Assembly: GCA_902518985.1 (NCBI GenBank)
Contig: CABYIF010000004.1
Location: forward strand, 1 to 51,721
Direction: 5' to 3'
DNA length: 51,721 nt
From: an uncultured Alphaproteobacteria bacterium
GTDB taxonomy: Bacteria; Pseudomonadota; Alphaproteobacteria; HIMB59; GCA-002718135
Shown: piece after piece, positions 1-45,887 of the stretch
Numbering within the stretch: the first letter of the stretch is position 1
Layout: each line of letters begins with the position of its first letter
Notes under the pieces: generated by a model
The model's database searches: none
What the model saw: only the letters and a program-made list of their open reading frames with translations
What the model was told of the DNA's origin: nothing
Translations under genes and position numbers: made by a program

Positions 1-602
1 GTGACAAAGGTTTTTACGCAAGAGATGAATTAAATACTCTCAATAAGTTTGATTCACATTTTATTGGTCATCCAACTAGAAAGGTCAAAGGAATAGAACA
101 TAATACAGGTGCTTTAGGTCACGGATTATCAGTAGCAGTAGGAATGGCAATAGGTCTAAAGCTAGATGAAAAACCACATAAAGTATTTACTCTTTTAGGT
201 GATGGTGAGCTCAGTGAAGGCTCAATATGGGAAGGATTAATGTCAGCTAATAAATACCAATTAGATAATTTAATTATTATTATTGATAGAAATAGACTTC
301 AAATTACTGGAAAGACTGAAGATGTAAATCCTACAGAACCACTAAAAGAAAAATTTTTGTCATTTGGTATGTCTGTTCGAGAAGTTGATGGAAATTCTGT
401 TGAACAATTACAAGATATTTTTAGAAAAATACCTTTTGAAGAAAAAAAACCAAATCTTATTATTGCTAATACTGTTAAAGGAAAAGGTATAAGTTTTATT
501 GAAAACCAAGTTATATGGCATCATAAGGTTCCTACCAAAAATGAATTTCAAGCCGCTCAAAAAGAATTAGATAATGAAAAATTAAGTTTAGAAAATGATT
601 GA
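1..602 (+). CDS. aptA: Transketolase N-terminal (ThDP-binding) subunit, 5' truncated by window edge; probable apulose-4-phosphate transketolase subunit A
   Basis: Frame is open from base 3 (DKGFY...GHPTRKVKGIEHNTGALGHGLSVAVG) into the ORF; GDGELSEG...NRLQ ThDP motif; sits next to the C-terminal subunit, an FGGY kinase and an ApsI-like isomerase. Confidence 0.8.
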   Translation, partial: DKGFYARDELNTLNKFDSHFIGHPTRKVKGIEHNTGALGHGLSVAVGMAIGLKLDEKPHKVFTLLGDGELSEGSIWEGLMSANKYQLDNLIIIIDRNRLQITGKTEDVNPTEPLKEKFLSFGMSVREVDGNSVEQLQDIFRKIPFEEKKPNLIIANTVKGKGISFIENQVIWHHKVPTKNEFQAAQKELDNEKLSLEND

Positions 603-1527
603 AAAAGCTAACTTAGAAATATTTGCAGAAACTTTACTTGATCTAGCAAGAAATGATAAAGATATCATTGTTGTTACAAGTGATTCTAGGGGATCAGGTA
701 AATTAACAAACTTTGGAAAAGAACTTCCAGATCAAATTATTGAAGTTGGAATTGCTGAACAAAATTTAGTTGCAATTTGTGCAGGTCTATCAGCTGTTGG
801 AAAAAAAGTATTTGGAGTATCTCCTTCTAGTTTTTTGACTGCAAGAGCTTTAGAACAAATTAAAAATGACATTGCTTACTCTAATCATCCTGTTACACTT
901 GTTGGGATTAGTTCTGGTGTTAGCTACGGTCAACTTGGATCTACACACCACTCCATTCATGACATTGCTGTATTGAGAGCAATTAACAATTTAAATATTG
1001 TTATCCCTTGTGATAATTTTGAAACAAAAAAAACAATTCAATCGGCAGTAAATTTTGATGAACCATTATTTATAAGATTTGGAAAAAAACCAATGTTAAA
1101 AATACATAATGATAATCAATTATTTAAAATAGGCAAGGGTATCAGAATTAAAGAGGGTAAAGATATAGTGTTTATTGCAACGGGCGAGACTGTTCAAAGA
1201 GCATATCAGGCAATAGAAATACTTCAAAAAGATAATTTTGATTGCACACTAATTAGTATGCACACTATTAGACCTTTTGATGAGAGTCTTTTTTTAGAGT
1301 CTATAAAACATACCAAAGGTATTATAGCAATAGAAGAACATAGTGAAAGTGGAGGTTTGGGAGAAAAATGTGCAAGTATTTTAGCTCAAAAAAAAATAAT
1401 GACGAACTTCAAAATTATTGGTTTTCCAGATGAATATATGGTCAATGGTTCACAAAGTGATGTTCTTGATCATTATAATATGGCGCCTAAAAAATTAGCA
1501 GAAATTGCAAAGAAACTAATAAGTTAA
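595..1527 (+). CDS. aptB: Transketolase C-terminal subunit; probable apulose-4-phosphate transketolase subunit B
   Basis: EVGIAEQN, RALEQIKND and GSTHHS motifs; overlaps the upstream subunit. Confidence 0.8.
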   Translation: MIEKANLEIFAETLLDLARNDKDIIVVTSDSRGSGKLTNFGKELPDQIIEVGIAEQNLVAICAGLSAVGKKVFGVSPSSFLTARALEQIKNDIAYSNHPVTLVGISSGVSYGQLGSTHHSIHDIAVLRAINNLNIVIPCDNFETKKTIQSAVNFDEPLFIRFGKKPMLKIHNDNQLFKIGKGIRIKEGKDIVFIATGETVQRAYQAIEILQKDNFDCTLISMHTIRPFDESLFLESIKHTKGIIAIEEHSESGGLGEKCASILAQKKIMTNFKIIGFPDEYMVNGSQSDVLDHYNMAPKKLAEIAKKLIS

Positions 1528-2993
1528 TGTATTTATCACTTGATCAAAGTACTTCATCTACCACGATTTTTTTATATAATAAAAAATTTAAACTTTTAAC
1601 TAAGCTTTCTAAATCACATAAACAGATTCAAAAATCCAGAGGTTATGTAGAGCATGATGCTAATGAAATAATGAAAAATATATTTTTTTTAGTAAAAAAA
1701 ATTTCTAAAAAAATTAAATATAATAAGGATTTATTTTTAAGCATTACTAACCAAAGGGAAACCTTTGTAATATTTGACAAAAAATCAGGTAAACCTCTCC
1801 ATAATGCAATTGTTTGGCAATGTAGAAGAGGTCAAAAAGTTTGTGATAAAATAAATAAATCAATAAAAAACAAAAATTTAATAAAGAAAAAAACAGGTCT
1901 TACTTTAGACACTTATTTTCCTGCTTCAAAATTAATAGAATTATTAAATTCAAATAAAAAAATTAAAGAAAAATTAAAAAATGGCTCAGCTTTATTTGGA
2001 ACAATTGATACCTTCCTCATTTATCAGTTAACCAATCTAAAAAAATATTCAACTGACTTTACAAATGCGTCCAGAACTCTTTTTTTTGATAATGGGTCAC
2101 TGGTTTGGAGTAAAGAACTTTTAAAATTATTTAAATTAAACTTAGAAAGTCTTCCAGAGGTGAGAGAAAGCTCATCAATATTTGGATACACAAATTTTAA
2201 TGGGATATTAAATAAGAATATTCCTATTTCAGGAGTAATAGGAGATTCACAAGCTTCAATTTTTGCAAATCAATGTTTTAATAAGGGCAATACTAAAATT
2301 ACTTTAGGTACAGGTGCCTCCATCTTAACAAATATAGGCCAGTCATTTGAACATAATAATAATATTATCACTACACTTTCTTATGTTTACAGAAATAAAC
2401 CATTATATTCTTATGAGTGTCTAATTAACTATGCTGGAGCTACAATAAGTTGGCTTAAAAATAATTTAAAAATTATAAGTAATGAGAAAGAGACTAATCA
2501 AGTATTTGTTAATACTAAAAATACTGAAGGTTTAGTTTTTGTTCCAGCTTTTGTTGGTTTGAGCTCTCCTCATTGGAAGCCTAATAGTAAGGCATTGATA
2601 TATGGATTAACACCTTCTATTAACAAGAATCATATAATAAGAGCAGCTCTTGAGTCTATAGCATTTCAAATTAAAGATTATCTAGATGATTTAGAGGTTA
2701 ACAATAAAATAAAATATAATGATATTTTTATTGATGGAGGTATAGTTTCTAATACTTCATTTATTCAGTTCTTAACTAATACTTTAAATAAAAAAATATA
2801 TGTAACTAATTATCAAGATATGTCTTCCTATGGAGCATTAATGATGGGTTTATTAGGTATGAAAATTAAAAAAAATTTCAAAGAAATGGCAGCACTAAAA
2901 CAAAAATATTTAGTTTATACTCCATCAAAAAATAATTCAGCAAACAAAAGTTATGAAAAGTGGAAACTAGTTTTAAAAAAATTTTATTTTTAA
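1527..2993 (+). CDS. aplK: FGGY (glycerol kinase-like) carbohydrate kinase; probable D-apulose kinase
   Basis: DQSTSST, ITNQRET, IVWQCRR, NASRT, GDSQA, RAALESIAFQ; start overlaps the aptB stop; substrate inferred from context. Confidence 0.7.
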   Translation: MYLSLDQSTSSTTIFLYNKKFKLLTKLSKSHKQIQKSRGYVEHDANEIMKNIFFLVKKISKKIKYNKDLFLSITNQRETFVIFDKKSGKPLHNAIVWQCRRGQKVCDKINKSIKNKNLIKKKTGLTLDTYFPASKLIELLNSNKKIKEKLKNGSALFGTIDTFLIYQLTNLKKYSTDFTNASRTLFFDNGSLVWSKELLKLFKLNLESLPEVRESSSIFGYTNFNGILNKNIPISGVIGDSQASIFANQCFNKGNTKITLGTGASILTNIGQSFEHNNNIITTLSYVYRNKPLYSYECLINYAGATISWLKNNLKIISNEKETNQVFVNTKNTEGLVFVPAFVGLSSPHWKPNSKALIYGLTPSINKNHIIRAALESIAFQIKDYLDDLEVNNKIKYNDIFIDGGIVSNTSFIQFLTNTLNKKIYVTNYQDMSSYGALMMGLLGMKIKKNFKEMAALKQKYLVYTPSKNNSANKSYEKWKLVLKKFYF

Positions 2994-2996
2994 AAT

Positions 2997-3974
2997 CTAT
3001 AAAAATTTATAAAGTGATTTCTGTGCAATTTTTAATGCAGTCATTGCATCATGATTAGATTGAGCTTCTTCAAGCGCTTTCATATCTAAATCATCCAAAG
3101 CCTTTTCTATTGATTTTAAGAAGTCAATTGCCTGATTAGCCATCTGTACACTATCTTCTCTAAATGGAAACTGATCAAGTTGCCAAACACCTTCCCAATT
3201 ATTCTTTTTTAAAACATAAAAAAATTCAAATATTTCTATAGGATGCAAGCTACCAGCAATTAGATCGTCATCCCAAGATCTGTAATTGTCATTAACATCC
3301 ATTCCAAATAAGCGACCATAATCTATAGCTAATTGAGCAGAGTCAGCAGCTGACTCACCGCCATAAATGGCATGTCCAAAATCAAGCAATATCCCAATAT
3401 TTGGAAGTCCAATTTTTTCTATACCTAATAAAGTTCTAGAAACAGAGTCATAACTCATTTTAACTCTAGGCTCACGTGGCTTATATTCGATTACAAATTT
3501 TAGATCTGGATTTTCACTTGCTAGTCTTGCAACTCCATCCATTGAATTTTTCCATAATGTTCTGTGATCGACTTGAAAAGGATAATCCCATCCATCTTGA
3601 CCTGGCCACAACTTAACATAAGCTGCATTAAAAAACCGCACGGCATCACAAGCCTGTGTAATAAGTTCATGAGCTCTATTACGAACGCCAGGGTCAGGAT
3701 TTGTAAAAGCCCCTTTTCTAAATTCTTTAGTATAAATCTCTGGAGTAATTCCAATAACTTCTAAATTAACTTTATCTAGCTCATCCTTTATTTCTTGATT
3801 TGAAAAGGAGCCACCAAAATAAGGAAAATTAATATCTACAACTGAGAGATCCTTAACCTGACCTGCTAATTTAATAGCATCCAAGACACTTCTAGGTTCG
3901 CCGTAGCCTTCAGTATTATATCTATCAACGTATGTAGCAAAATGCCAAATACCCGCTCCAAATTTCTGAGTCAT
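2997..3974 (-). CDS. apsI: Xylose-isomerase-like TIM barrel; probable D-apiose isomerase
   Basis: [62 protein letters not shown] match the ApsI family as I recall it; context agrees. Confidence 0.8.
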
Positions 3975-4084
3975 ATATTTTCATACCATAATCTGAAAAT
4001 AGTAGAAATCAAAACGATAATTTCTTTTTCCTGATTTTAGCTTCCATTTATCGAGATGGCACTTAAAAACTGCAAATTGACGCA

Positions 4085-4142
4085 ATTGATACTTATATCA
4101 ATAATTTTTTTAGGTTGTTTCAAATTTGACCTTGATTTGAAA
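4085..4142. promoter_or_regulatory. Two inverted repeats in the divergent apsI / binding-protein promoter region (candidate operators)
   Basis: ATTGATA-ctta-TATCAAT (4085-4102) and TTTCAAAT-N9-ATTTGAAA (4118-4142); AT-rich, so chance is possible. Confidence 0.35.
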
Positions 4143-4192
4143 ACTTGCCCATATTAACGTCCCTCATCTAATAATTATTAGGAGGATATAAT

Positions 4193-5101
4193 ATGAAAAA
4201 ACTTCTTATGACAGTTGTAGCAATCGTATTTGCTACAAGTGCAGCCTTTGCTGAAAGATACGTTATGGTAACTCACGGTGAAGGTAAAGATCCTTTCTGG
4301 CCAGTTGTGCAAAAGGGTGGTGAAGATGCAGCTAGAGCAATCGGTGCTGATTTCGAATACATCTACAACCCTTCAGCTGATATGGCAGATATGGCAAGTT
4401 CAATTCAAGCTGCTGCTGCGACTCAGCCAGACGGTATGGTAATTTCACTACCTGATCCAGATGCGTTAGGCCCTGCAATTAAAGCTGCTGTTGCCGCTGG
4501 TGTACCAGTTGTAACTATGAACTCAGGTCTTGAAAACTCAGCTGCTTTAGGTGCTTTAATGCACGTTGGTCAGCCTGAGTATCTTGCTGGTCAAAAAGCT
4601 GGTGCTAGAGCTGCTTCTGAAGGAGCTACTAAAGCACTATGTATGATTCAAGAAGCATACAATACTGCTCTTGTTGATAGATGTGAAGGTTATGGAGAAG
4701 CTGTTCCAATGGAATTTACAGATACTACTTCTGACCCAGCAACTATCGTAACTCGTGCAACTGCTGCTTTACAAGCTAACCCAGACGTTGATGCAGTTCT
4801 ATCAGTAGGACCTCACGTTTGTGAAGGTGTTGCAAAAGCAATGGATGATCTTGGTATGAGTGGTATTCACCACGCATGTTTCGATTTAAGCCCAGGTGTT
4901 ATGGACTTAATCGGAGCTGGTAAAGTTTCATTTACTATTGACCAACAACAAAGACTACAAGGCTATATGCCAATTATAGTTCTACACTTATACAATAACA
5001 GTGCAGGATTATTACCAGGTGCAAATATTCCATCTGGACCAGGATTTGTTGATAAGTCTAATGCTGCTTCAGTTTCAGCGTTAGCTGGTATCGATAGATA
5101 A
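4193..5101 (+). CDS. Sugar/polyol ABC transporter periplasmic binding protein (CUT2, RbsB-like fold)
   Basis: Signal peptide ending AAFA, VTHGEGKDPFW, TIDQQQRLQGY; strong SD AGGAGG at 4180-4185; biased codon use (GCT, GGT, AAC, TTC) suggesting high expression. Confidence 0.92.
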   Translation: MKKLLMTVVAIVFATSAAFAERYVMVTHGEGKDPFWPVVQKGGEDAARAIGADFEYIYNPSADMADMASSIQAAAATQPDGMVISLPDPDALGPAIKAAVAAGVPVVTMNSGLENSAALGALMHVGQPEYLAGQKAGARAASEGATKALCMIQEAYNTALVDRCEGYGEAVPMEFTDTTSDPATIVTRATAALQANPDVDAVLSVGPHVCEGVAKAMDDLGMSGIHHACFDLSPGVMDLIGAGKVSFTIDQQQRLQGYMPIIVLHLYNNSAGLLPGANIPSGPGFVDKSNAASVSALAGIDR

Positions 5102-5112
5102 CAATTAATTTT

Positions 5113-5138
5113 AAGCCGCCTTCGGGCGGCTTTTTTTT
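5113..5138 (+). terminator. Intrinsic terminator between binding protein and permease
   Basis: AAGCCGCC-TTCG-GGCGGC followed by T8. Confidence 0.9.
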
Positions 5139-5146
5139 ACAATATT

Positions 5147-6739
5147 ATGAATTCTAACGCACAACCTCAAAGAAAAGAATCAGATAGGCTAAAACCTAAA
5201 AGATGGTACTCAGCATTTTTTGCAAGACCAGAAGTTGGACCTTTGGGTGTTATGCTTTTACTTTTTGCAATGCTAGGTTATTTTTCAATCCCGCAAGGAG
5301 AGTTTTCATTAAATCCATTTGCTGGTGAAGGTTTTAATGCACTTGGAATTAGGAATAACTTTAGGGTTATTTCACAGTTAGGTATTGTTGCACTTGGAGC
5401 TGGTATGCTCATTATAGCAGGTGAATTTGATCTTAGTGTTGGTTCAATGATTGGTTTTGCTGGAGGAGCAATGGCGATGATACTTAAATGGGGATTTGCT
5501 GTTGTTATACCTTACATATCATTTGAAGGCAGTTTTCATTTAGAAGGTATAAAATTATTTGAAATAACAAATGTTTCTCCCTTAACAGCGCTTTTAATTA
5601 CTTTAGTAATGACTCTTTCTTTTGGATGGTTTCAAGGCTTTATAATAGTTAAAAGCGGAATCGCTTCTTTTATTGTTACCTTAGGAGGTTTATTTTTCCT
5701 AAGAGGTCTTACAGAAGTTACATATCGAGCCTTTAATAAAAAACCTGATCAAACAGCTGGGTCTACAACAGTGACCGATCTTCCAGATATAAAAAATATC
5801 ATCAATGTTCCTGGTCATGGAGAAATGGAAAGGGATGCTGCAAAAGCTTTGTCAAATGAAGAACTATTAGAAATTTTAAAAACAGCTCCAGAAAAAACAA
5901 TTAATAAACTTACAGAACAACTAACATACATTAACGAAAAAGTTGCGGTTACTAAAACACTTTTACAAAAACAAAAGATGGTAGATACAATGCAAAATAC
6001 TTTAGATAACGCTATAAAGTCAGGAAACGAATCAATGGTTGAAGCAATTCAGAAAAAAATTGATGCAGGTATTCAAGTACCAGAAATAGCAGCTAAAGCA
6101 GTAACAGATTTAGATTTAGCTAGAGAGTATTTAGATTCTTTTATCACTGCAAGACCAGTGGCTAATTTCTTTGGTGGAGATATTATGGAACCTTTCTTTG
6201 ATTGGTTATACTTTACCGCCGATTGGAATGTAAATATGTTTGGTAACAAGTTTGCACCTGGACTTTATTCTTGTGTGATGATTTGGGTGTTATTAGCAAT
6301 AATATGTTATTTTGTATTAAGTAAAACTCAAGTAGGTAACTGGATCTATTCCACAGGTGGTAACTTATCTGCTGCACAAGCAAATGGTGTGCCAACCAAT
6401 AAAGTTAAAATAGGACTGTTTATGTTTACTGCTTTTTGTGCAACAATGTTTGCAGCGTGTCAGGTATTCGAAGTCAATACAGCTGATACAGCTAAAGGAA
6501 ATCTAAAAGAATTAGAAGCTATCGCAGCAGCAGTAATTGGAGGAGTTGTTTTAACTGGGGGGTTTGGAACTATTTTAGGAATCATGTTAGGTGCTGTTAT
6601 TTTTGGAATTGCAAAGGAAGCTTTCTTTTATATACCTGGTGTTGATGGATCATTTTATAGAGTATTCTTAGGCGCAGTATTAGTTGTTGCAGCACTTACA
6701 AATGAAAATATAAGAAAAAGAATAATGGGAAGTATTTGA
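5147..6739 (+). CDS. Sugar ABC transporter permease (BPD_transp_2/RbsC family) with a large soluble insertion
   Basis: GEFDLSVGS, ASFIVTLG, GGNLSAAQANGV, ELEAIAAAVIGG; 530 aa. Confidence 0.92.
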   Translation: MNSNAQPQRKESDRLKPKRWYSAFFARPEVGPLGVMLLLFAMLGYFSIPQGEFSLNPFAGEGFNALGIRNNFRVISQLGIVALGAGMLIIAGEFDLSVGSMIGFAGGAMAMILKWGFAVVIPYISFEGSFHLEGIKLFEITNVSPLTALLITLVMTLSFGWFQGFIIVKSGIASFIVTLGGLFFLRGLTEVTYRAFNKKPDQTAGSTTVTDLPDIKNIINVPGHGEMERDAAKALSNEELLEILKTAPEKTINKLTEQLTYINEKVAVTKTLLQKQKMVDTMQNTLDNAIKSGNESMVEAIQKKIDAGIQVPEIAAKAVTDLDLAREYLDSFITARPVANFFGGDIMEPFFDWLYFTADWNVNMFGNKFAPGLYSCVMIWVLLAIICYFVLSKTQVGNWIYSTGGNLSAAQANGVPTNKVKIGLFMFTAFCATMFAACQVFEVNTADTAKGNLKELEAIAAAVIGGVVLTGGFGTILGIMLGAVIFGIAKEAFFYIPGVDGSFYRVFLGAVLVVAALTNENIRKRIMGSI

Positions 6740-42248: not shown

Positions 42249-43400
42249 ATGAATAAAAAACTTAAACTTGGAATGATTGGTGGTGGAAATGGAGCTTTCA
42301 TAGGTGCTGTTCATCGACTATGTGCGAGGATGGATAACAAATACGAATTTGTTGCTGGATGTTTATCTTCAACTCCAGAAAAGGCTGCAAAATCAGCTGA
42401 AGAAATTGGCTTAGATCCATCAAGAAGCTATCCTGATTTTAAGACAATGGCAGAAAAAGAATCGCTTAGAGAAGATGGAATAGATGTTGTTTCAATTGTA
42501 ACTCCCAATCATATGCATGCAGAACCTGCAATTGAATTTTTAAAAAAAAATATACATGTTATTTGTGATAAACCGATGACTTCAACAATGGAGGATGCTC
42601 ATAAATTATTTGAAACAGTTTCTCAATCTAAAGCACACTTTTTTCTAACGCATAATTATTCCGGCTATCCAGTTGTAAGAGAAATGCGTTCATTAATTAA
42701 AATTGGTGAACTTGGTAAAATAAGAACAGTTAAAGGTTCATATCTTCAAGGATGGTTGGGCTCGAAAGAAGAAGAAACAGGTGAAAATAAACAAGCAGAG
42801 TGGAGAACAGATCCAAAAAGGAGTGGTGTTGCTGGTGCTGTCGGAGATATTGGGAGTCATACAATGCATTTAATTGAATTTATTACTGGAGAAAAATTAA
42901 TCTCTGTAGCTGCTGATCTAACAACATTTGTTGATGGAAGAAAACTTGAGGATGATGCCTCAATTATGATTAGGATGTCAAATAAGGTAAAAGGTAATTT
43001 GTCAATCTCTCAAGTTGCAACTGGTGAAGAAAATAATTTTAGATTATCAATATATGGAGACAAAGGGGCACTTCATTGGTCACAAGAGAATCCAAATTAT
43101 GCTACGTTTAGTAAACTTGAAAAGCCAAACCAAATAATAACTAGAGGTGGATCAATAAAACAAGATGGATCATTTTCTCATGAAAGAGTACCAGCTGGCC
43201 ATCCAGAAGGATATCTTGAAGCTTTTGCACAAATTTATTCAGATGCTGCAGATGTCATACAAAATAAAGAAAATAAAACCGACTTAATTAAAATTCTACC
43301 AAATGTTAATGATGGACTTCACATTATGAAATTCATTAAGGCTACTGTAGATTCGAATAATAATAACTCTGCATGGACAGATTTATCAACAATCAAATAG
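42249..43400 (+). CDS. Gfo/Idh/MocA oxidoreductase (possible 3-keto-sugar reductase)
   Basis: LGMIGGGNGAFIGAVHR, ICDKP, WRTDP, GDIGSH, PAGHPEGYLEAF. Confidence 0.88.
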   Translation: MNKKLKLGMIGGGNGAFIGAVHRLCARMDNKYEFVAGCLSSTPEKAAKSAEEIGLDPSRSYPDFKTMAEKESLREDGIDVVSIVTPNHMHAEPAIEFLKKNIHVICDKPMTSTMEDAHKLFETVSQSKAHFFLTHNYSGYPVVREMRSLIKIGELGKIRTVKGSYLQGWLGSKEEETGENKQAEWRTDPKRSGVAGAVGDIGSHTMHLIEFITGEKLISVAADLTTFVDGRKLEDDASIMIRMSNKVKGNLSISQVATGEENNFRLSIYGDKGALHWSQENPNYATFSKLEKPNQIITRGGSIKQDGSFSHERVPAGHPEGYLEAFAQIYSDAADVIQNKENKTDLIKILPNVNDGLHIMKFIKATVDSNNNNSAWTDLSTIK

Positions 43401-43508
43401 ATATAATTTCCTATAAAACTTAGATATATTGGCATATGCATTTTTTGCATACTTATTTTTACATTTTGAAACTTAATAAATTAAAGAATTAAATTATATA
43501 CATCATTA

Positions 43509-43558
43509 CGTTCATCACTCTTAGGAGTGACGGAAGTAGACGAAAGTCGAAGGAACGC
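43509..43558 (+). ncRNA. Glutamine riboswitch aptamer 1 (glnA RNA motif)
   Basis: P1 CGTTC/GAACG; P2 TCACTC-ttag-GAGTGA; P3 CGGAAGTA-GAC-gaaa-GTC-GAAG with E-loop; lies in the amt leader. Confidence 0.88.
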
Positions 43559-43575
43559 ATGCTAAGTTATTAAAT

Positions 43576-43626
43576 CGTTCAATCTGAATTTATTCAGATC
43601 GGAAGTAGGTAATACCGAAGGAACGC
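43576..43626 (+). ncRNA. Glutamine riboswitch aptamer 2 (glnA RNA motif)
   Basis: P1 CGTTC/GAACG; P2 ATCTGAA-ttta-TTCAGAT; CGGAAGTA-GGT-aat-ACC-GAAG; stems differ from aptamer 1 but still pair. Confidence 0.88.
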
Positions 43627-43666
43627 GGATCTTATATATTAATTTCCATAGCGACGCATGAATAGT

Positions 43667-43695
43667 AACACACTGCTCACGGTGAGCTGTGTTTT
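43667..43695 (+). terminator. Leader hairpin; candidate expression platform or attenuator
   Basis: AACACA-ct-GCTCA-cgg-TGAGC-TGTGTT followed by TT, about 15 nt before SD GGAGG (43710-43714). Confidence 0.5.
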
Positions 43696-43718
43696 GTGAA
43701 ATTTATAATGGAGGATTA

Positions 43719-45005
43719 ATGTTAAAAAAATCTCTTTATTTAATTGGAATAGTATCTTGTTTTTTACTATTTAGCTCTCATGCTAGAGCAGAAGTAGATG
43801 CTGAAGTAGCATATATTTTAAATACATTTTCATTTTTAGTTTGTGGTTTCCTAGTGATGTGGATGGCTGCAGGTTTCTTATTTTTAGAGTCAGGTCTTGT
43901 TACTACTAGAAGTGTTTCAACTATTGCTGCTAAAAATATTGGCAAGTTTGCAATAGTTTCTATTGTTTTTTATTTATTTGGATACAATTTAGGTTACGGA
44001 GTAGAAGAAGGCGGTATTTTAGGTTTTCCTTCATTGTGGACTGATAATACATCTATAGAAACAGGATATTCAGATGCCTCAGATTGGTTTTTTCAGGCCT
44101 TATTTGTATGTGCAACAGTATCAATTGTATCTGGTGCAGTTGCTGAAAGAATTAAAATTTGGCCTTTTTTTGTTTTTGCTGCAATATTAGGTGGTTTTAT
44201 ATATCCTATACAGATGGGATGGGAGTGGGGAGGTGGTTGGCTTGATGCTCTAGGCTTTTCTGATTTTGCTGGATCTACATTAGTTCATGCATGTGGTGGA
44301 TCTGCAGCTTTAGCAGGTGTTATCTTACTTGGGCCAAGGTTAGGTAGATTTACAGAATCAGGTGAGCCAGCAAATATGGCTCCATTTGCACCTTCTTCAA
44401 TTCCATTAGTTACTCTAGGCACTTTCATTTTATGGATGGGTTGGTATGGTTTTAATGGTGGATCGCAACTAGCATTGGGCTCCTATGAAGATGCAACCGC
44501 AATGTCTCAAATTTTTATGAATACGCAGTTGGCTGCGTGTGGCGGTTGTATGGCAGGAGCAATTATAACAAGAGTAATAGGTGGTAAAACCGACATAGTA
44601 ATGATGCTTAATGGTGCTTTAGCAGGATTAGTATCTATAACAGCAGAGCCTTTGATGCCAACACCTCTTTTAGCAATCTTTATTGGAGCAATTGGTGGAG
44701 TAATTATGTATTATGGTACTAAGCTTCTTAATTCATTAAAACTTGATGATGTTGTAGGAGCTATTCCAGTTCATATGTTTGCAGGAATTTGGGGAACAAT
44801 GATAGTGCCTTTTACAAATCCTGAAGCATCATTTGGGATTCAGCTAATAGGTGTAATTTCAATTTGTTTATTTGTATTTATATTTTCTTACATAGTTATT
44901 TACATAATCAAATACACTATGGGACTTCGGATCAGTGAAGAAGCTGAGAAGCTTGGTACTGATAAAGCTGAAGTAGGAGTAATAGCCTACTCTATACGTG
45001 ATTAA
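43719..45005 (+). CDS. amtB: Ammonium transporter (Amt family)
   Basis: Signal peptide, SGAVAER, DFAGSTLVH, GWYGFNGGS, NGALAGLV, DDVVGAIPVH (twin His); ATG 43719 after GGAGG. Confidence 0.95.
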   Translation: MLKKSLYLIGIVSCFLLFSSHARAEVDAEVAYILNTFSFLVCGFLVMWMAAGFLFLESGLVTTRSVSTIAAKNIGKFAIVSIVFYLFGYNLGYGVEEGGILGFPSLWTDNTSIETGYSDASDWFFQALFVCATVSIVSGAVAERIKIWPFFVFAAILGGFIYPIQMGWEWGGGWLDALGFSDFAGSTLVHACGGSAALAGVILLGPRLGRFTESGEPANMAPFAPSSIPLVTLGTFILWMGWYGFNGGSQLALGSYEDATAMSQIFMNTQLAACGGCMAGAIITRVIGGKTDIVMMLNGALAGLVSITAEPLMPTPLLAIFIGAIGGVIMYYGTKLLNSLKLDDVVGAIPVHMFAGIWGTMIVPFTNPEASFGIQLIGVISICLFVFIFSYIVIYIIKYTMGLRISEEAEKLGTDKAEVGVIAYSIRD

Positions 45006-45052: not shown

Positions 45053-45079
45053 ATGGGGGATTTATTCCCCCATTTAATT
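45053..45079 (+). terminator. Terminator-like hairpin downstream of amt
   Basis: ATGGGGGA-tttat-TCCCCCAT followed by TTAATT. Confidence 0.7.
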
Positions 45080-45335: not shown

Positions 45336-45887
45336 TTAACAATTACCTGAAATATACGACAGCTTAGAGGCGTCAACACCTAGTAAATTATAAGCATCTT
45401 TCCATTTATTAGTAACGCTTTCTTCAAATATAAAACTATTGTCAGTTTCTAAAGTCATCCAACTATTAGATGCTAATTCTGTTTCTATCTGTCCAGGACC
45501 CCATCCAGCATAACCCAATGCTAATATACTATTTTTAGGACCATTACCTCTAGACAAATCTTCAAAAAACTCTGAGGTACTAGTTAAAGCAATACCTTTG
45601 GCTATATTTAAAGTTTCTTTTTGAACAACTTCATCAGAATGAAGAACAAAACCTCTGCCACTTTCGACTGGGCCCCCATACCTTATATATAATTTTTTAT
45701 CTGTGATTGGTTTATCAATACCTAGTTGTTCTAGGAGATCTGGATATAAGTCATAATCTATTTTCTTATTTATTATTATACCCATTGCTCCGTCCTTAGA
45801 ATGGGCACACATATAAATCACTGTTTTTTCAAACCTCTCATCTTCTAAAGAGGGCATTGAAATTAAGAACTGTCCTGTTAAATTCAT
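45336..45887 (-). CDS. YqgE/AlgH (DUF179) family protein
   Basis: GAMGIIIN, GGPVE..RGFVLH, LGYAGWGPGQ. Confidence 0.92.
   Translation of the reverse strand: MNLTGQFLISMPSLEDERFEKTVIYMCAHSKDGAMGIIINKKIDYDLYPDLLEQLGIDKPITDKKLYIRYGGPVESGRGFVLHSDEVVQKETLNIAKGIALTSTSEFFEDLSRGNGPKNSILALGYAGWGPGQIETELASNSWMTLETDNSFIFEESVTNKWKDAYNLLGVDASKLSYISGNC

Follow-up and report, generated by a model that had tools for sequence, protein, structure and literature searches.

The window analysed here, a 51,721 nt stretch of DNA from an uncultured alphaproteobacterium (contig CABYIF010000004.1), encodes a marine-subtype ammonium transporter, amt (43719-45005, forward strand), in the leader of which stand two type-1 glutamine riboswitch aptamers in tandem. 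The evidence inclines us, by a little, to the view that this leader (43507-43718) ties the expression of amt to the glutamine pool through the two aptamers, a 'clamp' helix and masking of the ribosome-binding site (RBS), such that glutamine would switch the gene off. The basic finding, that such a pair precedes amt, is not itself new: both the riboswitch and this type of genetic context have been described before.

When the whole window was compared with Rfam using cmscan, the only two matches above the gathering scores were both to RF01739 (Glutamine; gathering score 35 bits), each on the forward strand and spanning the full model (positions 1-53 of 53). Aptamer 1 lies at 43507-43561 (63.1 bits, E 1.1e-11) and aptamer 2 at 43574-43629 (60.7 bits, E 5e-11), both scoring about 25 bits over the gathering score. 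The pair falls within the 318 nt intergenic gap preceding amt and ends 90 nt before the start codon, on the same strand. Scanning 43400-43800 against Rfam at permissive settings revealed no further credible match, and no third aptamer; the sole related match in this interval, to Glutamine-II (19.8 bits, gathering score 33), overlaps aptamer 2, and the presence of another RNA family was rejected. In the cmscan alignments the two aptamers have different P2 stems (UCACUC/GAGUGA in aptamer 1, AUCUGAA/UUCAGAU in aptamer 2) and different P3 stems (GAC/GUC and GGU/ACC respectively).

The pairing of these stems was assessed by aligning 123 distinct tandem cores collected from relatives, with 500 column shuffles and with displaced structures as a control. 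The cores CGUUCA, CGGAAGUAG and GAAGGAACGC are unchanged in all 123 sequences, whilst the P2 and P3 hairpins vary, with 17 pairs in the two aptamers having changes on both sides. Across the aptamer stems and the two clamp helices described below, 96.6% of cells are paired; sliding the structures by 1-3 columns reduced this to only 25.6-39.9%. Neither the observed share of paired cells nor the covariation score was reached by any of the 500 shuffles, although these figures overstate independence, since the aligned cores are kin; the count of pairs changed on both sides was reached by 17 of 500. P1 is invariant in the alignment, and hence uninformative on pairing either way. Despite the kinship of the sequences, such a number of different stem sequences leaves little doubt that the aptamers are real, and selective binding of L-glutamine by them would follow by analogy with the rest of RF01739. 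The preliminary description, which had recognised the pair from shared cores and from P2 and P3 stems that differ yet pair, is thus borne out both by the covariance-model matches and by the covariation among relatives.

The window's genome (1.18 Mb in 54 contigs, 69.6% complete) contains a second tandem RF01739 pair, scoring 62.5 and 63.7 bits, on the reverse strand of contig 35 (4777-4897). This stands between glnB, the genome's one PII gene (4939-5280; 112.6-113.4 bits), and glnA (3258-4691), encoding a type I glutamine synthetase; an aminotransferase gene lies upstream of glnB. In most glnA leaders that follow glnB, a conserved CTTTAC(A/T) box resembling a -35 element lies some 38 nt upstream of aptamer 1, in which case glnA would be served by a separate promoter directly after glnB. 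RF01739 was detected in 23 of 24 relatives from the genus, always paired, with one to four pairs in each genome. At the level of the order, 150 relatives were drawn, 79 from the window's family and 71 from its sister family: 77 of the former, representing seven of the eight sampled genera, had matches, as against none of the latter. A further 20 amt loci, more distantly related and for the most part labelled Pelagibacter, Pelagibacteraceae or Pelagibacterales, included only one with a tandem RF01739 pair. The genes downstream of the pairs fall into three classes: amt, often present as two adjacent paralogs each with its own aptamer pair; glnA; and an operon composed of CP_ATPgrasp_2 (a circularly permuted ATP-grasp gene), Alpha-E and transglutaminase-like genes, referred to below as the ATP-grasp class.

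The conservation of these leaders extends beyond the aptamers. The linker joining them (43557-43575, forward strand; GCAUGC UA AGUUAU UAAAU in the window) is near-invariant in the 123 sequences, being conserved almost like the aptamer cores, with a 17-19 nt consensus of GCAUGC-A(1-3)-AGUUAU-(U/A)AAAU. A conserved trailer (43630-43662, forward strand) follows aptamer 2, starting GGAUC and including both UUAAUUUCC, a candidate mask for the RBS, and AUAGCGACGCAUG. The element CCAUAGCUA-AGCAUGA is common to the trailers of amt, glnA and ATP-grasp leaders, reading ...UUUCC-AUAGCU-AA-GCAUGA in the amt and ATP-grasp classes and ...AUUUC-AUAACU-AGA-GCAUGA in glnA leaders; the hairpins adjoining the linker and trailer vary freely. 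These two conserved stretches are predicted to pair, the linker providing the 5' strand and AUAGCGACGCAUG the 3' strand of a clamp that encloses aptamer 2. Helix a of this structure (CAUGC with GCAUG) can pair in all 123 sequences, and helix b (AGUUAU with AUARCU) is fully paired in 119, the window having a single A-G mismatch.

In the window, the linker-trailer duplex has an energy of -10.3 kcal/mol, a value reached by 0.3% of shuffled linkers, and the mean across leaders is -11.1 kcal/mol, compared to -5.6 kcal/mol for dinucleotide-shuffled linkers. RNAfold built the clamp in the window, amt2 and glnA leaders when the aptamers were forced, and often also when no constraints were applied; it is present in both the minimum free energy and the centroid structures of 43557-43665. 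No such pairing between linker and tail was found in two other tandem architectures from metagenome loci, which are described below. A phage origin for the arrangement was considered and rejected, the linker pattern having no matches in viral contigs.

The ribosome-binding region of amt (43707-43721, forward strand) consists of AUGGAGG, containing the Shine-Dalgarno (SD) sequence GGAGG at 43710-43714, and the start codon AUG at 43719-43721. This ATG, with GGAGG before it, was preferred to starts at 43720 or at the GTG at 43689, both of which were rejected. In amt1 leaders, as exemplified by 43689-43718 of the window, an in-frame upstream GTG or ATG would add ten codons (M-x-C-E-I-Y-N-G-G-L) before the signal-like N-terminal segment of the protein. 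These ten codons are kept across the genus, which is probably due to their overlap with the SD region rather than to translation.

The influence of the clamp on this region was modelled by forcing the aptamers to fold and making the linker unavailable, with the predicted unpaired probability of the stretch from SD to AUG as the readout. Blocking the linker lowered this probability from 0.68 to 0.32 in amt1 leaders (42/45), from 0.59 to 0.32 in amt2 leaders (28/30) and from 0.55 to 0.23 in the window itself. The trailer set free in the model, which includes UUAAUUUCCAU, pairs with AUGGAGGAUUAAU in amt leaders. Folding models therefore link the clamp to exposure of the RBS in leaders of this class.

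The sequence of events that we consider best able to turn this link into a switch begins with the linker pairing with the trailer after aptamer 2, thereby forming a clamp around it. Whilst the clamp is intact, the U-rich/UUUCC part of the trailer would be tied up and the RBS would stay open. In the crystal structures, as summarised by a 2024 review (PMC11477058), glutamine is located at the base of P1, where G23 pairs with C60, the base following P1, only in the ligand-bound state. The clamp strand CAUGC begins with C60 of aptamer 1, hence this base cannot pair with G23 and with the trailer simultaneously. Glutamine binding would draw it into pairing with G23 at the foot of P1, costing the clamp one G-C pair as well as its stacking on P1; the clamp would loosen, and the freed trailer could then mask AUGGAGG and the start codon, such that translation would fall. 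An OFF switch is the expected sign for both amt and glnA and is physiologically reasonable, and we regard the switching off of amt by glutamine as plausible, if only just the better bet. Formation of the clamp in vivo, its coupling to the RBS and the sign of the response are each what we infer from these models and comparisons.

Several observations weigh against this mechanism. No compensatory double changes are found in the clamp across the 123 sequences: the strands are near-invariant, the changes that do occur are only wobble-compatible, and two lineages (L030 and L148) have lost two of the helix b pairs. The observed duplex energy is reached by 5% or fewer of the shuffles in 141 of 143 distinct linker/tail pairs, but these sequences are close kin, so that the test amounts to few independent observations. 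The modelled coupling is missing from glnA (0.45 to 0.44) and ATP-grasp leaders (0.45 to 0.43), despite their having the same linker and trailer. The complementarity between trailer and RBS is at the level expected by chance in AU-rich RNA, the median share of shuffles doing as well being 0.045-0.12 for the 14 nt element and 0.15-0.53 when the whole segment after P1 is compared with the RBS. Additionally, RNAfold shows no conflict between the folded aptamers and the clamp, and were glutamine simply to stabilise P1, an ON switch would be favoured.

Some of these points can be accommodated in more than one way. Near-invariance of both clamp strands is to be expected if each has two alternative pairings, but equally if they form a site for a protein. 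The missing coupling in glnA and ATP-grasp leaders indicates either that the model is incomplete or that another output operates there. As for the mask itself, the trailer sequences UUUCCAUAG and AUUUCAUAA look complementary to AUGGAGG in amt leaders and to UAUGAAAU at the glnA start; however, the duplex energies do not clearly improve on those of shuffles, hence a statistically supported mask was rejected and the pairing is retained as a hypothesis only. A few lineages hint at co-variation between trailer and SD: glnA leaders with an amt-type trailer carry a UAUGGAG-type SD (L147, L213 and L231).

Rather than repressing amt, the same tandem riboswitch might act as an ON switch, which we consider unlikely. 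In this alternative, glutamine would stabilise both P1 helices and favour the clamp, sequestering the trailer and leaving the RBS open; Amt production would in that case coincide with nitrogen abundance, for instance to release excess ammonium derived from the catabolism of organic nitrogen. RNAfold does build the clamp and leave the RBS open when the aptamers are forced, and the gifB leader of Synechocystis, the only characterised member of the class, needs both the aptamer and glutamine for expression, according to Klahn et al. (PMC6212724). The same source calls negative regulation 'reasonable' in the case of the metagenomic glnA leaders, and the leader type found before amt also precedes glnA, where induction of glutamine synthetase by its own product is hard to rationalise. 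An ON switch would fit the detection of one SAR11 Amt only in nitrogen-replete cells, as given by Smith et al. (PMC3870248), but the Amt leaders of Ca. Pelagibacter ubique described there hold other, non-RF01739 structures, and that family had no RF01739 match here. It would also require C60 of aptamer 1 to serve G23 and the trailer at once.

A transcriptional output, in which a hairpin after the trailer acts as a glutamine-dependent intrinsic terminator and the clamp only folds or couples the aptamers, appears more improbable still. The hairpin in question (ACACA-CU-GCUCA CGG UGAGC UGUGU followed by UUUUGUG; 43668-43692, forward strand) had been noticed in the preliminary description as an extra element before the SD; it is present at about that position, although its stability when folded alone (-11.4 kcal/mol) does not exceed that of shuffles (z -0.62). 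It is terminator-like, with pattern matches at 43671-43691, and the region contains six terminator-like sites where 0.9 would be expected. Its arms differ in sequence in other leaders yet remain complementary, as judged by eye with no formal count. Hairpins with a clearer stem and U-run occupy the same place in glnA leaders: that of the window's genome is UUAAUCUCAAUAGUUGAGAUUAA-UCUUUUU (z -2.03), and in most of the genus the glnA hairpin is GGGUA...UACCC-UUUUGUUG. However, most amt1 hairpins lack a following U-run, and the predicted probability of the hairpin varies little with linker state (amt1 leaders, 0.82 to 0.59; glnA leaders, 0.87 to 0.85).

Neither was an antiterminator found. The hairpin arms were compared with the aptamers and the trailer and no pairing emerged, the variable arms being complementary, by eye, to no conserved part of either. 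In glnA leaders a pairing between an A-tract and a U-tract (CAUCAAAAG with CUUUUGAUG) was discarded as trivial in AT-rich RNA, and RNAalifold on the class-specific tails gave weak, uninformative consensus structures. Attenuation of transcription is consequently ranked lower than control at the RBS for amt, but could have a role in glnA leaders, with their better-defined stem and U-run.

The protein regulators of nitrogen metabolism provide a second context in which to view the leader. The genes on either side of amt encode a GFO/IDH/MocA oxidoreductase (upstream, 42249-43400, forward strand) and an AlgH-like DUF179 protein (downstream, 45336-45887, reverse strand); hence there is no PII gene beside amt, and the earlier statement that no glnK adjoins it was correct. 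A broader proposal, that RNA sensing replaces PII and NtrBC, does not stand as written. In the window's genome the one PII gene recovered was glnB, with no second copy, and its position beside the second tandem pair contradicts the replacement of PII by RNA; furthermore, the genus has an NtrX-like response regulator encoded next to a histidine kinase, and there is a palindrome upstream of amt that is discussed below. What survives is a narrower version, limited to GlnD and GlnK.

This narrower version relies on comparisons at two levels: a set of 41 genomes from the genus, which are 55-89% complete, such that regulators are to be described as 'not found' rather than 'absent', and a comparison of families across the order limited to genomes that are at least 85% complete. 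Within the genus, PII was found in 32 of the 41 genomes, never in more than one copy, and at the glnA riboswitch wherever coordinates were compared, whilst neither GlnD nor GlnE was found in any. The only sigma-54-type activator in the genus is a protein of about 445 aa whose best NCBIfam match is NtrX (414 bits, cut-off 600) rather than NtrC (221 bits); its gene is preceded by one for a histidine kinase and followed by trkA. Amongst the more complete genomes, 20 of 27 from the window's family have PII, with one copy each, as against 24 of 24 from the sister family, 20 of which have two copies; GlnD was found in none of the 27 and all of the 24. In a complete sister-family genome (G025), one PII gene lies 9 nt upstream of amt, in a glnK-amtB arrangement, and the other is 44 nt upstream of glnA, with no riboswitch.

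The riboswitch therefore appears to occur where GlnD and GlnK, which sense glutamine and gate Amt in the protein system, are missing, though this is one phylogenetic contrast and not a statistical association. As the sister family has GlnD, glnK-amtB and glnB-glnA but no riboswitch, the RNA probably replaces the GlnD/GlnK glutamine-sensing branch and not PII as a whole. It is a more tentative proposal, and one that we hold to be doubtful, that pairs of aptamers took over the entire glutamine-sensing branch (GlnD, GlnK, GlnE and NtrBC) with GlnB and NtrX being kept, and that a shared clamp platform reverses the cyanobacterial sign by adding one layer of pairing.

Sequences upstream of the aptamers suggest that a protein regulator acts at amt as well. 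A promoter-like site (TTGAAA-18 nt-TAAATT; 43466-43495, forward strand) was identified by a consensus scan with 9/12 matches; seven such sites were found in the region, compared to 8.7 expected from shuffles, hence it is weak on its own, and it gives a correspondingly weak indication that the transcript would start a few bases before aptamer 1. Upstream of this putative promoter is the palindrome TATGCA-N5-TGCATA (43435-43451), a candidate operator. The motif RTGCR-N4-7-YGCAY, with its start 72-75 nt ahead of aptamer 1, is present in the distinct upstream regions of amt other than amt2 (62 of 78) and in those of the ATP-grasp class (30 of 31), but in none of 54 from glnA or 33 from amt2. Such a fixed position suggests that a protein layer of control is probably still present at amt. 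The palindrome lies around 60 nt upstream of the start implied by the promoter, which would be an activator-like position, and it is a guess that NtrX is the regulator acting there. The bare motif has 14 matches in the window's genome, 11 inside open reading frames and three intergenic, the latter including one before a ccrM-like methylase and one in the rRNA operon; it is too unspecific for a regulon to be drawn from this genome alone. Part of the rRNA operon (the 3' part of 16S, two tRNAs and the 5' part of 23S) was observed on contig 9 of the same genome (L308, 13800-16500).

A further reading, in which the aptamers would be vestigial or have some other role (that of a stable small RNA, for instance) and amt would be mainly under a protein at the palindrome, would suit the fixed position of that motif before amt and ATP-grasp leaders and the presence of an NtrX-like regulator, but is very improbable: glnA and amt2 leaders carry aptamers without the palindrome, the aptamers always lie between a promoter-like site and a nitrogen gene, and the invariance of all conserved core positions across the 123 sequences, alongside covarying stems and scores for both aptamers so far above the gathering score, indicates purifying selection and not decay.

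Related sequence was found as assembled contigs in four marine metatranscriptome runs. One contig of 364 nt (43527-43888, with 10 mismatches) begins inside aptamer 1 and runs through aptamer 2, the trailer and the hairpin to take in 170 nt of amt. Such a contig would be consistent with one mRNA containing both leader and amt, bearing in mind that contigs show no ends and that an RNA library may contain DNA. The interval 43300-43504 is uncovered by contigs in all four runs, an absence that constitutes no evidence for a start site. The shares of the runs (0.04-0.15) are not large enough to identify a habitat by themselves.

The amt product itself matches PF00909 (333.7 bits) and, at 541.3 bits against a cut-off of 514, the NCBIfam model TIGR03644, 'probable ammonium transporter, marine subtype'; its N-terminus is a signal-like segment. 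It is the only Amt match in the window's genome at its 69.6% completeness. A pattern scan detected a terminator-like hairpin, GGGGGAUUUAUUCCCC, after the gene (45055-45070, forward strand).

The third class of downstream gene extends the potential reach of the leader. ATP-grasp leaders are exemplified by L300 (G018:C5:75800-83800, 471-3666) and by L008-L019 and others; the operon was not found in the window's genome, of which 69.6% is represented. The tandem leader would put this widespread ATP-grasp/Alpha-E/transglutaminase-like system under glutamine control in the family. By eye, ATP-grasp leaders such as L008 and L010 appear to contain a short upstream frame of 17-20 codons after the hairpin. 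This frame would begin within CUAUGG, which is complementary to CCAUAG of the trailer, and end at UGAUG, where its stop codon overlaps or adjoins the start of the ATP-grasp gene. A string of the form GRT(M/K)GFEPT..SGTTS.RSNQLSY also recurs, in the N-terminal 30 codons of L006 (5277-6566) and upstream of glnA in L145 and L147; this looks like a frame over conserved non-coding, tRNA-like sequence and not a protein.

Marine metagenomes were scanned with a pattern matching any pair of tandem aptamers, which yielded 80 loci with DNA. Leaders with the window-type linker precede only the amt, glnA and ATP-grasp classes in this set. Of the two other architectures, one has an 11 nt linker and runs straight into the SD (L172, L179, L196, L198 and L202). 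The tail immediately after aptamer 2 in these leaders (CACCU...) can pair with the SD GGGAGGGUGG, a direct anti-SD layout that would give an ON switch if the ligand captures the first C. The other has a 24 nt hairpin linker and up to three aptamers (L173, L197, L210, L211, L216 and L228), and precedes a type II-like glutamine synthetase, recognised by its WSFDGSSTQQAEG motif, and a porin-like gene.

The closest published precedent is that of the glnA motif RNAs, which are reported from marine metagenomes before PII, glutamine synthetase, GOGAT and ammonium transporter genes, 'some in tandem', by Weinberg et al. (2010, PMC2864571). The leaders analysed here belong to the same aptamer family and share the association with amt and glnA, the tandem layout and the marine habitat, as judged from record titles and metatranscriptome runs. 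Whereas the published examples are unassigned environmental reads, here there is a host, an uncultured SAR11-like alphaproteobacterial family, in addition to a conserved pairing of linker and trailer and the regulator content of that host. Reviews (PMC6316151) and Klahn et al. 2018 (PMC6212724) state the metagenomic amt and glnA associations as environmental sequence of unknown affiliation and sign, and a 2025 paper (PMC12379486) reported RF01739 in SAR86 metagenome-assembled genomes. A literature search, the coverage of which did not include Ames & Breaker 2011, Ren et al. 2015 or supplements, returned no paper assigning tandem amt or glnA leaders to this family, describing the linker-trailer pairing or noting the GlnD/GlnK contrast.

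The Synechocystis gifB leader (Klahn et al. 2018, PMC6212724) belongs to the same aptamer class. PII is present in both hosts, whilst GlnD is lacking in cyanobacteria and was not found here; in each case the RNA provides a direct signal of glutamine. The gifB leader, however, has a single aptamer, functions as an ON switch and controls a factor that inactivates glutamine synthetase, whereas the leaders in this family have two aptamers, stand before the uptake and assimilation genes themselves and have the extra layer of pairing between linker and trailer. Their sign is likely to be the opposite of that of gifB, as had been anticipated.

Tandem glycine riboswitches provide a structural parallel: they have two aptamers, one expression platform and a helix formed between the leader and the linker. 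The amt leader is alike in having two similar aptamers, one downstream platform and a predicted helix involving the inter-aptamer linker, but fold and ligand differ, and the linker here would pair with the 3' trailer rather than with the 5' leader.

With regard to nitrogen control in streamlined cells, Ca. Pelagibacter ubique, with its PII-independent nitrogen response, is described by Smith et al. (2013, PMC3870248) as lacking GlnD, GlnK, NtrBC and GlnB, as having kept NtrX, and as having structured RNAs in its amt leaders. Both it and the window's lineage are therefore streamlined marine alphaproteobacteria with NtrX and structured amt leaders, with GlnD, GlnK and NtrBC lacking in the former and not found in the latter. 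They differ in that GlnB, too, is missing from P. ubique, whose amt leaders contain other, uncharacterised structures, whilst the lineage described here keeps glnB beside glnA and uses RF01739.

Tests of glutamine riboswitches have so far been confined to cyanobacteria, in which they turn on an inhibitor of glutamine synthetase, and the copies found before amt and glnA in ocean metagenomes previously had neither a host nor a known sign. The window supplies a genome context for them, in an abundant-looking, uncultured SAR11-like family. The difference between this family and its sister is a clean natural contrast bearing on the replacement of a protein cascade by RNA in a streamlined cell, and the leader at 43500-43730 offers concrete constructs with which to address whether two aptamers drive one platform. 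If the proposed wiring is true, it would also put the ATP-grasp/Alpha-E/transglutaminase operon in the nitrogen regulon of these bacteria.

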